From: Dictyostelium discoideum
Taxonomy: Eukaryota
Length of the DNA stretch: 64,000 bases
NCBI GenBank assembly: GCA_000004695.1
Contig: CM000152.2
Coordinates: forward strand, 4,384,001-4,448,000
Direction: 5' to 3'
The position numbers were made by a program, and so were the translations under genes. The notes below the pieces were generated by a model, which ran no database searches, was not told the origin of the DNA, and was given only the letters and a program-made list of their open reading frames with translations. Position 1 is the first letter of the stretch. Each line of letters starts with the position of its first letter. Shown one piece after another: positions 4,160 to 29,445 of the stretch.

Positions 4160-7100
4160 ATGAATTTATCAACGTCAACAACAAATACACCAATAGTAAC
4201 AAATACAACAGGAACACCAACAACATCATCAACCGCAACATCAACAATAGAACATAAATCAGAATTAGAATCACTTGAAAATTATTTCACAGCATTACAA
4301 AAAGCAGTAAATGAAGGTATAAAATTAAATTATAATATCATTAGTAAATTTGATATAGTTTGTAATATTACACCATTATTTGAAGTTTTAAATAAACAAG
4401 AGGTTGACTCTATCACATTGAAATGGTTAAATCTATTAACAAGTTGTCTTGGTCAAGGTACTGGTGGTCCAGCTTTCTCATTAGTCATTGGTAATTTAAT
4501 TTCAAAATTATTTGATCGTTCACCAAATGGTAGTAAATCCTCAACTTCAATAGTTAAAAATTTAATAACTCAATTACAAACAAAACAAATACAATCAAAT
4601 TTAAAAATGTAATATTTAAAATATTTATTCAATATATATATATTTATTTATTTTAAGGTACTAATACTAAACTCACATTTACATGCATGCACAGATCAAT
4701 TATTGATGTTTTATCAATTATATTTAAAAATAGTAAAACATTAGCAATTGTTTATATTCAAGAGATATTAACGATATTATCAAAGATGGTTAAAGTTTCA
4801 AGTGAAACATCAGGATTTAAAGCATCATGTATGAGATGTATTGGATGTTGTTTAGATAGTGTTGGATATACTAGAGGTGCAATTCATGTGGATACATTTA
4901 AATTGATAAAAACCATCTATCCAATACCAGTTGGGAATAGTGGTGGTAGTGGTGGTGGTAGTGGTGGTGGTAATAGTGGTATTGGTCAAATGTCATCATT
5001 ACTTGCAACTAATAACGGTGTATTAGCAGCTGCCCAAGATTTTAAAATTGAATGTTTAAATTGTATTTTACCAATTGCAAAATATTATAATCAAAGTGAT
5101 TCAAAATTATCAGGTTTTGATGAAAAGATTCTAACTTTTCTTCAAAAGATATTAGATGAGGATTCTTATCGTCAAAGATATAAATTATCGGAAACTTTAG
5201 CATTGGTTTTATCAACATTTTATTCAAAAGAGCAACAACAGCAACAACAACAACAACAATCATCATCGTCACAACAAAATCAATCACAAAATCAATCACA
5301 AAACCAATCATCATTATCAGCATCAGGTAAAGATCAATCATCGGTATTATCATCATCATTACAGGGTATTCAAACAAATCAATCAAATGGTGCACTAGGT
5401 AGTGGTGGTGGGTCAATTAAGAAATGGTCAATTGAACAATGTTTAAATTATTTAAATAATTTATTAGTAACAACATTGGTAAATAAAAAAGATATTAGAA
5501 CCAATATTACAATGGGATATAGTATGTTTTTAAGGGAATTATCATTATCAGATATTGAACCATTAATTGATACTATTATTTCAACCATTTTAAAGATAAT
5601 TTCAACACCATTTAATAAATTCATTGGCAATTTATCATCAAATTCAACAGTTTCACCAACACCACAACAAATTAGTGAACAAATTCAATTTAAATCTTGT
5701 GTATCATATATAATTAGAACTGGTTTAGGTGAAAAATTAAGTGAAAATGGTCAGCAAAGAATGTTACGTTATTTATTAACTTTGGTAACTTCATCAACTA
5801 CAATACAATCAACAAGTACTCAGCCAACAGGTACTCAAACAACAGCCACTACAACATCATCATCATTATCAACAAGTACAAATTCAACTACAGCAATAAC
5901 ATCAGATTCAACATTAAATGAATTAATATTATATGTATCATTAAAAGAAAGTTGTTTATTAATTAATGAATTGGGTGAAGGTGGGTTGGGTGGTATAGTT
6001 GAAGATTATTCAGCACAATTGATACAATTATTCAGTGATCGTAATCAAAGTACAAGAGTATGGGCAGCAATTTGTTTAAGATCATTGGCAACTCATTTAC
6101 CAAAATATATTTCACAATTTTTAACAGAATGTTTAACAAATTTAAATAATTTAATTGGTGAGATTGATAAATTATCAATTCAACCCGATTCATTGAAAAG
6201 AATTATGAATTCATTAAAGGGTAATTCACAAGGTTGCGCAGCATTAATTTCAACTGTAAAGACTACGGAATTGGGTGTACCAGCGACATTGTTAAATCAA
6301 ATTACAAAGATTTCCTCATCGTTGTTGTCGAATCCAGATTTCCTCAATCCAGCTATTACATTGGCAAGATTGGAAGCAGGTTGGACCATTATGAATTCCT
6401 TGATCAAGTATATGGGTACAACATTTGTTGAATCGATATTGGTTAGTTTGTTTGGATTTTGGAAGAGTTGTTTCAATATTAGCACAGTTCATCCTACAGC
6501 AGAGAGGGATATAGTGATTTTTGCACGTACTAGAGCCGATGCATTAATACCCTTACATAGTTTAATAGTTTATAATAGTAAGTTATTGAATTCAAAAGTG
6601 ATTGGCACAATAGTTAATTTCTTGGGTAATACATTGAAGACCGTTAGTGAATTGCCAGCCATTAGTACATCATTTCAAAGTTCAACCAATGAATTAACTC
6701 AATTGTTAGAGTATTATTTAATTCGTACATTCTTGGCATTGCCAGCTCAATCATTTGCAACCCATCATACCACATTGATGACTATTGTTACATCGTTAAT
6801 ATTGGATGGTGTTCAAAATACAATGTTTCCATCATTGTTACATCGTGATGACGAGGATGTATTATTACCAGATTTGAAATCAAGTTATTATCAATTCGAA
6901 TTGAATTATCAAATACCATTCACAAGTCAAGATAGTTCAATGACATCATACACTGAAATCAATGATTGTTTCTCTCACAAGTTGACACAATTCTTAGAGA
7001 TACGTGTTGTAAATAGTGCCATCGAGTTATTCTCTTATCTATTCGTTAACCAACCAGATAGACATAGAACTCAATTGATTGATCATCTTTCAAATTGTAT

Positions 7101-16355: not shown

Positions 16356-16426
16356 TGCGTATGCTGGGAATCGAACCCAGTTCGCATCCGTGGCAGGGAT
16401 GCATCATACCACTAGACCACATACGC
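16356..16426 (-). tRNA. tRNA-Gly (anticodon GCC), 71 nt
   Basis: Reverse complement folds as a canonical cloverleaf. Acceptor stem GCGTATG/CATACGC. Anticodon stem CATCC/GGATG with loop CTGCCAC. T-arm CTGGG-TTCGATT-CCCAG. Discriminator A. Identical to the copy at 29344..29414. Confidence 0.95.
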
Positions 16427-22143: not shown

Positions 22144-24201
22144 ATCAAAAATAAAAAGTACAACCAATATTCAATCAGAAACAATTCCAATTAATGTTAA
22201 ATTACCAAGTACTTTAATTACATTTATTATTAATAATTTATTAACAGCATTACCAATTGGATTTTTTGAAAGTAATATTCAAAATCTTTATATTTATAAT
22301 GCTGGATTTAGTGCTAGTTATCCATCATCTTTAAAAACAGTCAATAAACAATTGACAGAAATGGTATTAAGTGTGAATCAAAACTCAATACCTCCATTTA
22401 ATATGGGAAGCTATCTTTCAAATTTAAATGAATTAATTTTAAATGTAATTAATGAAAAGTCAATTATTGGATACACTGATTATTCTTTCCCAACATTTCA
22501 ATCATTTAGAATTTTCAAACATCTTACTGTAAATTTCCAAAATAATCAAAATGAAAATTCAATTCAACTTTTTAACTTCCCATCAACTTTTAATAATATT
22601 CAATCACTTTCAAAATTAAATATTAATGGTATTGGTTTCACTGTTGATTCATCATTAGGTTATATTGATTTAAGAAATAATCCTCAAACTTTTGATTTGT
22701 AATTATTATTGTTTATTATTATTAATTCACATTAAATAGTTTTTATTTTTGTAACTAATATTTTTTTATTATTTTTTAGAATAATTAATGGAACATGTGA
22801 ATTATTTTCATCATGCACTACAACTAATGATTGTGTTAGATTACCAAAAACTTCAAGTTTAACTGTTTTAGAATGTTCATTTAATATTAGTAATATTAAT
22901 TATTTAAATATTACAAGTTTTAAATCAACATCAAATAATTTATCACAAACACTTCCAGAAATTAATAATCCATTAGAAATTAATTCTTTTATAATTTCTA
23001 ATACAGCTGTAAGTAATTTTTTTTAAACAATATTAAAAATAATAATAAAATTATTAATTTTACTTTTTTCAAATAGATTACAGGAATAATTCCACAAAGT
23101 TATTGTAAAATTGGGAAATCAATATTCCAAGCTCAAAATAATAAACTTAATGGTGTTGTACCATCATGTTATCAATGTCAAGGTGGCTCACTTTCATCCG
23201 GTATTCTTCCAAATAATTTTGATAATTTCAATTCATCAACACCAAAAAGTTGTCCTGCATTTTCAGTAGATGATAGCTATAATCGTACAATCGATACCAT
23301 TGGTGGTTTATTGATTGTTAATGGTATTGATTTAGGTTGGTCAATTACATCCACTATGACTATTGGACATAGATATTCAATTCCAAATTACCAAATTGGA
23401 TTTCAAATTCCATCAGGTATTGGTAAAAATAATCAATTCAGTGTATCATTTACAAGTGATAATACTCATACTTTCTATTACGATTATATACCACCAACTA
23501 TTGCTTCATATTCGATTATTGAAATTAGTGGTAGTAAATACTTTGCAATCGATGGTAATGGTTTTGATACCAATAATGCAAATGTTGTTTTATTCAATAA
23601 TGGCCAATCAATTAATTTTAGTACTGCATCCAATGGTAGAATCGTATGTACTTCTATTGATTTATTATCTCAATTAGTTCAAGGAATGAAATATCATTTA
23701 TCAATGAAAGTTGGAGGTCAAGATTCAAATGTATTCACTTTTGGTTATTATAATATCACTGTTTCAAATAGTAGTTCTTTATCTTTCAATACTGATGGCG
23801 GTTTAATTAGTATTGATGGTTCATTTGGAACAACTAATTCAAGTTTAGTATATGTTGAAATTAATGGAATTAAATGTACAGTTGAATCAATCACATATGA
23901 AAAACTAACAATTAGTTATCCATCATCAATTAGTGGTAATTTCATTCTTTCTATTAATATTGAAGGAGGTCAACTTAGTATTCCAATTAAGATTTCAGAT
24001 GCCAACACTAGTGGTTCTGTGACTAGCTCTTCTTCTACCACCACTTCTACCAGTTCCTCTACTACCACTACTACCTCAACCAATTCACCTACTACCTCAA
24101 CTAATTCTGGAAATGAACCAAATCCTTCATCCTCATCAATTTTATCAATATCTTTCTATTTATTAACTTTGGTATCATTCATTTCTATTAATAGTTGTTA
24201 A
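21679..24201 (+). CDS. Secreted/GPI-type cell-surface protein with N-terminal LRR region, IPT/TIG domains, Ser/Thr-rich stalk and C-terminal hydrophobic tail. 4 exons, approx. join(21679..22046, 22159..22698, 22780..23008, 23076..24201).
   Basis: N-terminal signal peptide (MIKVTFIIFFFYIIQFINSQS). LRR-like repeats in exons 1-2. Exon joins use donors GTAAAG/GTAATT/GTAAGT with T-rich...AG acceptors and keep frame. IPT/TIG-like beta-rich repeats (ISGSKYFAIDGNGF..., VEINGIKCTVESI...). TTSTSSSTTTTT stalk. Ends SILSISFYLLTLVSFISINSC (GPI-signal-like). My position count and the ORF track disagree by 1 nt in exon 4. Confidence 0.55.
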
Positions 24202-24609: not shown

Positions 24610-24640
<31 letters not shown>

Positions 24641-24783
24641 CGTTTTATAATTTTTTTTTTTTATTTTTTTTATATTTTTGTTATGAGTAAATAAATATTA
24701 ACAAAAGATAAAAGCAAAATAATTCATTGCATTTTTTATATATTTTTTTATTTTCTTATTTATTATTTATTTGAAAAAAAACG

Positions 24784-24821
<38 letters not shown>

Positions 24822-25128
24822 GGTATAATAAGTTTTGATTGGCCAAAATTTAAAAAACAAAACTTAATAACGAGACTATATAATTACGTTACAAATTAAT
24901 TTTTAATTTTTTACTTTTTTTTTTTTTTTTTTTTTTTGAAAAAAAAAAATTTCGAAATTTTTTTTTTTTTTTTCGTTTTTTTTTAGTATAAAAAGACATT
25001 TTAAAACTGATATATTTTCATTCAACAAAACATTTAATTGTAAGTTAAAAAAATAATAAAAAAAAAAAATATATATATATATATATATATTTCCTTGGAA
25101 ATAAATAAAAAATTATTATAATAGTGCT

Positions 25129-25216
25129 ATTGAATGATGATATATCACCGCCCCAGTCATAATTTTTGTGCTGATTCGGATTTACAGAACACGCCAGTTT
25201 TGCTTCTGACACCAAT
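25129..25216 (+). ncRNA. Candidate box C/D snoRNA (about 88 nt)
   Basis: 5' ATTG-aa-TGATGA (C box at 25135-25140)...CTGA (D' at 25171-25174)...CTGA (D at 25206-25209)-cac-CAAT 3'. The 4-bp terminal stem ATTG/CAAT flanks the C and D boxes. The surrounding region is an intergenic non-AT island with no ORF. Confidence 0.35.
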
Positions 25217-25412
25217 AGTCACTACTATAATTATTATATTCATAATATTTATGTAGTTCAATATATTAATATTATTTTATTTTTATATTATAGATTTCTC
25301 GCTAAATAATTTCTATGAGCTTCCTCCTTTGAATTCTCTGCTTTTTAATAATTTCTTGAGGTATGTTACCTAATTGATTCAATCGCCAAATCTTGATATT
25401 TTTTTAAATGTT

Positions 25413-25482
25413 TTGAATGATGAAACAAACAGACCTGATCTGAACAGTCAATGTTGACCAAAACTAAGAAGTTCTGACTCAA
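25413..25482 (+). ncRNA. Candidate box C/D snoRNA (about 70 nt), about 200 nt downstream of the first candidate, same orientation
   Basis: 5' TTGA-ATGATGA (C box at 25417-25423)...CTGA (25435-25438, D'-like)...CTGA (D at 25474-25477)-c-TCAA 3', with terminal stem TTGA/TCAA. Confidence 0.3.
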
Positions 25483-26113
25483 ACATTTAAAAATATATTA
25501 TTTTTTCAGGCGAAAAATATATACTCTTTTTTTAAAAATAATTCGAATACTAATCGTGTTTTCTTTTTAAAAAAATAGGTTTTTCGTTATTTAAAAAATA
25601 TTGTTTTCTTTGTTTAAAAATTATTGTTTTTTTTTTTTGTTCAAAAAATTATTTTTTTCTTAATTTAAAAATGCTTAATAAAAATTTAAATTTTATTTTC
25701 TTTAAAAAAAATCCCGCGTCAACTTTATTTTTTATTTTATAATGATTTTTATTATTTTTTACTTGTTAATTTAATAAATTGCCGTATTCGAGTTTAAATT
25801 TCCTGATGATATGAATGTTAATTGTCATTGAGGAATTTAATTCATTTATTGTTTTAATCTTTTTTTAAAAATATACACATTTAGTTTATTGTTTTTTAAT
25901 ATTTTTATTATTTTTTTTTTTTAATTTTTTGATTGAAAGATGTGTTCCAACTTTTTTTTTTTTTTCATTTTTTTTTTTATTTTTATGAAAATTTTTTATA
26001 ATTTTTTTTTATTTTTTTTTACCTTCCAACAAATGACAAAACAATAAGAAAAAAAAAAAAAAAAGAAAAACAAAAAAAAAAAAAAAACAAAAACAGATAA
26101 AAATAAAATTAAA

Positions 26114-26453
26114 ATGGAAGAAGAACAAGTTTATCAAAAAGCATATGAATGCTTTCAAAGAAAAGAATTTGAACAATCTTTAAAATTATTAAAAGAGATC
26201 AAAGAAAAGAACCAATATCAATCTACTGTAGAGATTCAAATGAATATATTAGTTGCAGAATTTTATAATAGAAATTGTTTAAATCATTTAAAATTAATTG
26301 AAGATTTAAATCAGTTATTAAAATCATTAGTAACAAATAAACAACATCAACCACAACAACAACCATCACAAGACAATTCATCACCAATATTATCATCAAC
26401 ATCAATAACATCACCACCACCACCAACCATTGGTTTAGATTCACAGCCACAAT

Positions 26454-29343: not shown

Positions 29344-29414
29344 GCGTATGTGGTCTAGTGGTATGATGCATCCCTGCCACGGATGCGAACTGGGTTCGAT
29401 TCCCAGCATACGCA
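29344..29414 (+). tRNA. tRNA-Gly (anticodon GCC), 71 nt, identical to the copy at 16356..16426
   Basis: GCGTATG-TG-GTCTAGTGGTATGAT-GCATCCCTGCCACGGATGC-GAA-CTGGGTTCGATTCCCAG-CATACGC-A. Canonical cloverleaf, anticodon loop CT-GCC-AC. Confidence 0.95.
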
Positions 29415-29445
29415 CAAATTTTAAATGCCTGATTTATTAGATCAA

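Follow-up and report, generated by a model that had tools for sequence, protein, structure and literature searches.

The CD9-CD1 box C/D snoRNA gene pair on Dictyostelium discoideum chromosome 3: identity, transcription unit, guides and a possible second guide in CD9

In a stretch of 64,000 nucleotides of Dictyostelium discoideum chromosome 3 (contig CM000152.2, positions 4,384,001 to 4,448,000 of the forward strand; in the following "the window", to which all five-digit positions refer) two tandem units with the boxes of C/D snoRNAs lie between two protein-coding genes, which raises the questions of which RNA genes these are, whether they share one transcript and which rRNA nucleotides their guides address. 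Both units had been proposed as candidate box C/D snoRNAs in a first-pass annotation made from the letters alone, and real C/D snoRNA genes thus proved recognisable from raw sequence, as both have full-length Rfam matches, are listed in Table S5 of Diesend et al. 2022 (PMC8817022) and are published. A scan of the whole window at Rfam gathering thresholds gave two full-length snoRNA matches, RF01563 (DdR13) and RF01559 (DdR1). Unit 1 (25131-25209) scores 100.4 bits against RF01563 (gathering score 65, model positions 1-80 of 80) and unit 2 (25414-25479) scores 94.8 bits against RF01559 (gathering score 70, model positions 1-66 of 66), with covariance-model E values of 1e-18 and 2e-15 for the two units, and unit 2 equals the RF01559 consensus at 66 of 66 positions.

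In Table S5 of Diesend et al. 2022 (PMC8817022) CD9 is placed at chr3:4409131-4409211 (+; 81 nt, 40.74% GC) and CD1 at chr3:4409414-4409479 (+; 66 nt, 36.36% GC), CDx replacing the name DdR-x under which Aspegren et al. 2004 had described the snoRNAs. Window and table coordinates differ by an offset of 4,384,000 that is common to both units, the computed values for 25131-25211 (81 nt, 40.74% GC) and 25414-25479 (66 nt, 36.36% GC) equal those of the table, and in both the start of CD9 lies 283 nt upstream of the start of CD1. As coordinates, spacing, lengths and GC contents all agree with Table S5, we are virtually certain that unit 1 is CD9 and unit 2 is CD1/DdR-1, i.e. that the locus is the CD9-CD1 gene pair of D. 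discoideum chromosome 3, at about 4,409,131-4,409,479 on the plus strand, and no evidence contradicting this identification was found. Moreover, unit 1 contains, without a mismatch, the reverse complements of two published oligonucleotides, namely the CD9 primer and the CD9/13 northern probe, and the C-D gap of CD1, 50 nt, is the one given in Table S4 (PMC8817022). Against the genomic sequence (25453-25473, reverse complement AACTTCTTAGTTTTGGTCAAC) the CD1 primer of Table S2 (PMC8817022), AACCTCTTAGTTTTGGTCAAC, has one deviating base, probably a misprint or a mismatch that was tolerated. Both genes are therefore already described, in the literature since 2004, in Rfam and in the RiboMeth-seq re-analysis of 2022, and unit 1 is the published CD9 and not a possible new gene. 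CD9 is presumably the old DdR-9, judging from the numbering having been kept.

The Rfam family name might suggest that unit 1 is DdR-13/CD13 itself, since RF01563 "DdR13" is its best Rfam match and 25189-25205 is exactly the reverse complement of the published primer for CD13; the CD9 primer, however, is likewise an exact match, and according to Table S5 CD13 lies on chromosome 5 at 2600248-2600331 (minus strand, adjoining CD2) and has 84 nt and 44.05% GC, whereas unit 1 has the length, the GC content and the distance to CD1 of CD9 (PMC8817022). In addition, unit 1 and the RF01563 consensus disagree at 7 positions, so that its being CD13 is extremely improbable. The name DdR13 falls on unit 1 because CD9 is a paralogue of CD13/DdR-13. 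Still more remote, and in our view practically negligible, is the reading that motifs and stems have come together by chance in an intergenic island that holds no RNA gene. The pattern ATGATGA-N45-70-CTGA occurs four times in the window as against 0.82 expected, two of the occurrences lying beyond these units and within coding sequence, and neither unit folds better than shuffled sequence (z -0.58 and +0.65). The guides of C/D snoRNAs stay single-stranded, however, and low fold z-scores are normal for this class. The bare C/D motif is thus weak evidence, and it is the Rfam covariance models that decide; the full-length matches with their E values, the exact fit to published coordinates, lengths, GC contents and probes, and the published expression of both RNAs all stand against a chance origin.

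Table 1. Features of the CD9-CD1 locus, in window positions
Feature	Position	Strand	Basis or remark
CD9 flanking stem, 5' half CTATTG	25127-25132	+	sequence, fold; partly beyond the mature RNA
CD9, box C/D snoRNA, 81 nt, paralogue of CD13/DdR-13	25131-25211	+	RF01563, 100.4 bits; Table S5
CD9 box C, ATGATGA	25134-25140	+	sequence, alignment
CD9 5' antisense element, ACCGCCCCAGTCA	25147-25159	+	complementary to LSU P loop TGACTGGGGCGGT; SNORD31/ceN63 guide alignment
CD9 likely box D', degenerate CAUA	25158-25161	+	aligned to SNORD31, RF01563 and ceN63; putative function
CD9 box C', UGCUGA	25169-25174	+	aligned to ceN63 UGAUGA and the SNORD31 C' region
CD9 3' antisense element, CGCCAGTTTTGCTT	25192-25205	+	26S Am1370 guide (also assigned Am1463)
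CD9 box D, CTGA	25206-25209	+	sequence
CD9 flanking stem, 3' half CAATAG	25213-25218	+	pairs with 25127-25132
Spacer of the bicistronic unit, 202 nt	25212-25413	+	no gene recognised
CD1 external inverted repeat, 5' arm (precursor stem)	25396-25416	+	self-BLAST, fold
CD1 (DdR-1), box C/D snoRNA, 66 nt	25414-25479	+	RF01559, 94.8 bits; Table S5
CD1 box C, ATGATGA	25417-25423	+	sequence
CD1 D' antisense element, ACAGACCTGAT	25429-25439	+	17S Gm1506 guide, also assigned 26S Gm2132; snoR25/snR56 alignment
CD1 box D', CTGA	25440-25443	+	sequence, alignment
CD1 putative box C', UGUUGA	25452-25457	+	aligned to snR56 UGcaGA
CD1 D antisense element, CTAAGAAGTT	25464-25473	+	17S Um1456 guide, Table S7; weak snoU61 match
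CD1 box D, CTGA	25474-25477	+	sequence
CD1 external inverted repeat, 3' arm	25479-25498	+	self-BLAST, fold

The architecture of the two RNAs (Table 1) agrees largely with what had been read from the letters. For unit 2 the C box and both CTGA boxes, D' and D, are all present as placed, and for unit 1 the C box, the 3' D box and the stem hold, but the internal CTGA is probably not D'. According to the ceN63 and SNORD31 alignments, this CTGA (25171-25174) belongs to the C' box, and the likely D' is a degenerate CAUA; at its position SNORD31 has CUGA and the RF01563 consensus CuGc, and ceN63 likewise reads CAUA. None of the 7 differences between CD9 and the RF01563 consensus falls into the C, C' or D boxes or into either antisense element, i.e. 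the C' box UGCUGA is unchanged, and 3 of the 7 are found in the D' box (CAUA vs CuGc). The terminal stems, described before as 4 bp each, are longer: a perfect stem of 6 bp flanks CD9, and the inverted repeat around CD1, about 20 bp long, AT-rich and interrupted by one bulge (17 of 18 matches in self-BLAST, 25396-25413 vs 25481-25498), reaches well past the mature ends. The latter resembles a precursor stem, and such stems are mentioned as "data not shown" for some snoRNAs by Diesend et al. (PMC8817022).

Both units lie between an ORF with an IPT/TIG domain (stop at 24201) and a homologue of CCR4-NOT subunit 10 (start at 26114), all four being on the plus strand, and the absence of an ORF from the region, claimed together with its position between two genes, holds for the spacer between the two RNAs. 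The description of the region as an intergenic island that is not AT-only is also accurate, its GC content being 22-29% as compared to 10-14% in the flanks. The spacer (25212-25413) gave no Rfam match at E<=10 and is unique in the window save for AT-rich low-complexity matches; on the minus strand at most 33 codons in a row are free of stops, and this stretch looks leucine-rich-repeat-like, but is too short to be meaningful. A GTAAGT at 25041 was considered as intron donor of a host gene and set aside, as Dictyostelium C/D snoRNAs are intergenic with the exception of CD38 (PMC8817022). Neither a DdR1 nor a DdR13 match at E<=0.01 was obtained within 10 kb on either side of the CNOT10 orthologue in D. 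purpureum, P. violaceum or T. lacteum, i.e. the gene order with the snoRNA pair beside CNOT10 is not kept at these three dictyostelid loci.

Several further features of the neighbourhood were observed. Homopolymer runs, poly(T) as well as poly(A) and about 40 nt at the longest, occupy the intergenic region upstream of the cluster (24630-24660, 24780-24820 and 24920-24975); such long runs are typical of the genome and are relevant to promoter mapping. Two tRNA-Gly(GCC) genes, 16356-16426 (-) and 29344-29415 (+), lie about 13 kb apart in opposite orientation, are identical over the 71 nt of the Rfam match and flank the snoRNA cluster with its neighbouring genes. About 320 nt 3' of CD1, at 25795-25840 (+), an 8-bp stem (AAATTTCC / GGAATTTA) encloses CTGATGA (25803-25809), which resembles a C box, and TTGA (25828-25831), which resembles a D box. 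These boxes are 18 nt apart, too few for a methylation guide, and the arrangement resembles a kink-turn hairpin; the fold z-score is -1.93, with 9 of 200 shuffles folding equally well, and Rfam gave no match.

The tandem arrangement raises the question of whether the pair is expressed as one unit. Dictyostelium C/D snoRNAs had been introduced in the first-pass annotation as independently transcribed and sometimes clustered. Clustering is confirmed by Table S5, where CD9-CD1 is a cluster, but independent transcription is unlikely for this pair, which, on the evidence of the same paper, is probably one bicistronic unit (PMC8817022). Of the four bicistronic units predicted in 2004, three have yielded primary transcripts in RT-PCR, CD16-CD5 being the exception (PMC8817022). 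The clusters among CD1-CD17 in Table S5 are likewise four, namely CD9-CD1, CD13-CD2, CD16-CD5 and CD11a-b (PMC8817022), from which we deduce that CD9-CD1 should be among the three for which a primary transcript has been demonstrated. As three of the four bicistrons of 2004 have such a transcript, as the exception is CD16-CD5 and as CD9-CD1 is among the four, CD9 and CD1 are most likely co-transcribed.

Two independent transcription units with their own promoters are the alternative to one bicistronic precursor, and we consider them unlikely. Each gene has a flanking stem of its own, the AT-rich stretch that opens the spacer (about 25220-25290) could house a promoter, and for CD16-CD23-CD5, where a primary transcript is missing, the authors allow for independence (PMC8817022). 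That case, however, is the chromosome 5 exception to the RT-PCR result, and CD9-CD1 belongs to the four clusters among CD1-CD17. Moreover, a promoter motif of the DUSE type used by ncRNA genes is absent near either gene. The DUSE, [AT]CCCA[CT]AA, is said to have been placed by Hinas et al. in 2006 about 60 nt upstream of Dictyostelium snRNA and Class I RNA genes. None is found near 25070 or 25350; the window contains only two, at 1894 and 18150.

Expression of both RNAs is published, which answers the check for small transcripts in RNA-seq or northern data that had been suggested for the two candidates: CD1 and CD9 pass the RNA-seq expression and 5'-end criteria of Diesend et al., primer extension and northern data are reported, the RNA-seq expression score of CD1 is 15, and the northern blots are for CD9/13 (PMC8817022). 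An association of CD9 or CD1 with fibrillarin, Nop56, Nop58 or Snu13 is not among the results reported in Diesend 2022 (PMC8817022).

The maturation of the pair would follow the general scheme of the class. In box C/D snoRNPs stems join the boxes C and D, the resulting kink-turn binds the core proteins, and exonucleases trim the RNA to the core that is protected by protein. By analogy, we infer a processing pathway in which CD9 and CD1 would be transcribed, most likely jointly as one bicistronic precursor, and in which the flanking complementary sequences (6 bp for CD9, about 20 bp for CD1) would juxtapose the boxes C and D, so that the C/D kink-turn may recruit Snu13, Nop56, Nop58 and fibrillarin and exonucleases may trim the precursor to 81 nt (CD9) and 66 nt (CD1). 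The mature RNAs would then pair with pre-rRNA via the 10-14 nt upstream of a D or D' box, and fibrillarin would methylate the 2'-OH of the rRNA nucleotide opposite guide position 5.

Which nucleotides these are has been predicted for both RNAs. The D guide of CD1 is assigned to 17S Um1456 (human Um1442/U61; Tables 1, S5 and S7), its D' guide to 17S Gm1506 (yeast Gm1428/snR56, human Gm1490/U25), and for the D' guide a second target is predicted, which Table S7 lists as 26S-A2132 but Tables 1 and S5 as 26S Gm2132 (PMC8817022). CD9 and CD13 are both assigned to 26S Am1370, which Table 1 equates with yeast 25S Am1133 (snR61) and human 28S Am1858 (U38), and by prediction to Am1463 (PMC8817022). Gm2952 in the P loop, equated in Table 1 with the SNORD31, ceN63 and snR67 sites (yeast Gm2619/snR67, human Gm4166/U31), is assigned to CD13 alone (PMC8817022). 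The 49 high-confidence sites of the RiboMeth-seq study include 17S Um1456 and Gm1506 as well as 26S Am1370, Am1463, Gm2132 and Gm2952; the assignment of guides to sites is bioinformatic, and knock-outs of CD1 or CD9 are not reported (PMC8817022). If the +5 rule is applied to the window, A25469 points to a U (CD1 D), C25435 to a G (CD1 D') and T25201 to an A (CD9 D), and these nucleotides, U, G and A, are those of the published sites Um1456, Gm1506 and Am1370.

The D guide of CD9 was also compared with rRNA directly. Complementarity was tested, for the two antisense elements of CD9, on the LSU rRNA of metagenome contigs. The exact 14-nt complement of the guide, AAGCAAAACTGGCG, with the conserved GGGATGAAC after it, is present in 32 of these contigs, in all of them in the context of LSU helix 39 (H39), and in one contig (L149) the site lies inside an Rfam match to LSU_rRNA_eukarya. 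On eukaryotic LSU 13 nt of the guide are paired from position 2, or 14 nt if position 1 is included, with an A opposite position 5. The suggestion that ACGCCAGTTTTGCTT, just before the D box of unit 1, is an rRNA-complementary guide is thus supported, the pairing exceeds the 10 nt of complementarity that had been named as a check, and the site with which ACGCCAGTTTTGCTT pairs in LSU is the published Am1370 site. Among the 32 contigs with the H39 context the P loop is reached in one only (L139) and the 3' domain of 17S in none. In viral contigs the two-site 17S pattern for the CD1 targets had no match, and the 14-mer had chance matches in phage contigs only. One metagenome contig (L133, Ga0056132_1000444, 10,414 nt) carries the LSU helix-39 context TTTTGGTAAGCAAAACTGGCGGTGTGGGATGAACC at 6175-6201 (-), without an Rfam match at gathering thresholds, rRNA included; the contig may hold strongly diverged rDNA, or the tool may have failed on it.

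For CD1 the alignments with the guides of snoR25, snR56 and U61 and the published assignments support the two guides as antisense elements. A site near 17S U1264 with the sequence UUCUUAGUU, which was considered as target of the D guide, was dropped in favour of the published Um1456 (PMC8817022). What is observed here is the identity of the genes, their box architecture, and that the guides are complementary to conserved rRNA sites and homologous to guides of other eukaryotes; from the pairing, we infer that CD1 and CD9 would cause the methylations assigned to them.

CD9 may, however, contain more than one guide. It is possible, if not quite probable, that its 5' element ACCGCCCCAGUCA (25147-25159), together with the degenerate D' CAUA, is functional and acts on 26S Gm2952 as a second guide or as a pairing chaperone. 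The complement of the element, the 13-nt TGACTGGGGCGGT, is present in 23S rRNA across bacterial phyla, and in a metagenome contig (L166) it is located at about 2224-2236 of a complete LSU_rRNA_bacteria match of 2883 nt, i.e. in the P loop, at a site that we take to be near E. coli G2251. In CD13 it is the same element to which Gm2952 is assigned (PMC8817022). In CD9 the P-loop antisense element is intact, all 7 differences from the family consensus avoid both antisense elements, and the segment from D' via the linker to C', CAUAAUUUUUGUGCUGAUU, is nearly identical to the ceN63 consensus CAUAaUGUUUGUGAUGAUU, with CAUA in both. If D' begins at 25158, position 5 falls on C25153, whose partner is the second G in the GGGG of the P loop. 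This G is, as we assume, the universally methylated nucleotide that corresponds to E. coli Gm2251. The U31-type module at 25147-25176 (+) suggests conservation between Amoebozoa and animals, and the D' guide of CD9 is possibly functional. Against such a role it can be held that, given a divergence of about 9%, chance alone would leave an element of 12 nt untouched in roughly 1 of 3 cases, and that Gm2952 was not assigned to CD9 by the pipeline of the authors (PMC8817022). On the basis of its sequence, CD9 is thus weakly suggested as a guide for Gm2952. If this were true, CD9 would back CD13 at the P-loop Gm, which bears on guide redundancy at functionally central rRNA sites.

The kinship of the two RNAs with other snoRNAs can be followed guide by guide. 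CD1/DdR-1 as known from RF01559, Aspegren 2004 and Diesend 2022 and unit 2 are the same in consensus, coordinates, length, GC content and C-D gap, without any difference. The consensus of RF01563, the family named after the CD9 paralogue CD13/DdR-13, shares with CD9 the C, C' and D boxes as well as both antisense elements and differs from it at the 7 positions mentioned, and only CD13 is assigned to Gm2952. Outside Dictyostelium all alignments, i.e. those to snoR25, snR56, snoU61, snoZ223, SNORD31 and ceN63, stay below the Rfam gathering scores; nevertheless, each guide aligns beside the guide of the family that serves the orthologous site (snoR25/snR56, snoU61, snoZ223/snR61 and SNORD31/ceN63).

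In its 5' half, unit 1 can be aligned with SNORD31 (U31, human 28S Gm4166) at 27.8 bits (E 3e-4) as against a threshold of 40, i.e. the model does not place unit 1 in the SNORD31/U31 family RF00089, and with C. elegans ceN63 at 31 bits (E 1e-4) as against a threshold of 65; the Rfam searches gave no match to an snR67 model. SNORD31 and ceN63 have the antisense element ACCGCCCCAG in common with unit 1, and ceN63 in addition shares the D'-linker-C' segment including CAUA, whereas SNORD31 lacks the second guide, of the U38/snR61 type, that unit 1 carries. This second guide corresponds to that of snoZ223 (snR61/Z1/Z11/snoZ223/U38, clan CL00051): the D guide of unit 1, GCCAGUUUUGCUU-CUGA, aligns with GCCAGUUCUGCUU-CuGA, a weak match of 20.3 bits (E 0.26). 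The two guides differ by one base, a U in unit 1 for a C in the snoZ223-type guide, and this change matches an A for a G in the rRNA target AAGCAAAAC. The yeast rRNA sequence at that site is presumably AAGCAGAAC.

In unit 2, the D' guide ACAGACCUGAU plus its box aligns with plant snoR25 at 40.7 bits (E 2e-5) and with snR56 at 27.3 bits, and the D guide is weakly matched by snoU61, the family of U61 (18S Um1442). The guides of snR56/U25/snoR25 and of U61, which in yeast and human are found on separate snoRNAs, are united in Dictyostelium on one RNA of 66 nt.
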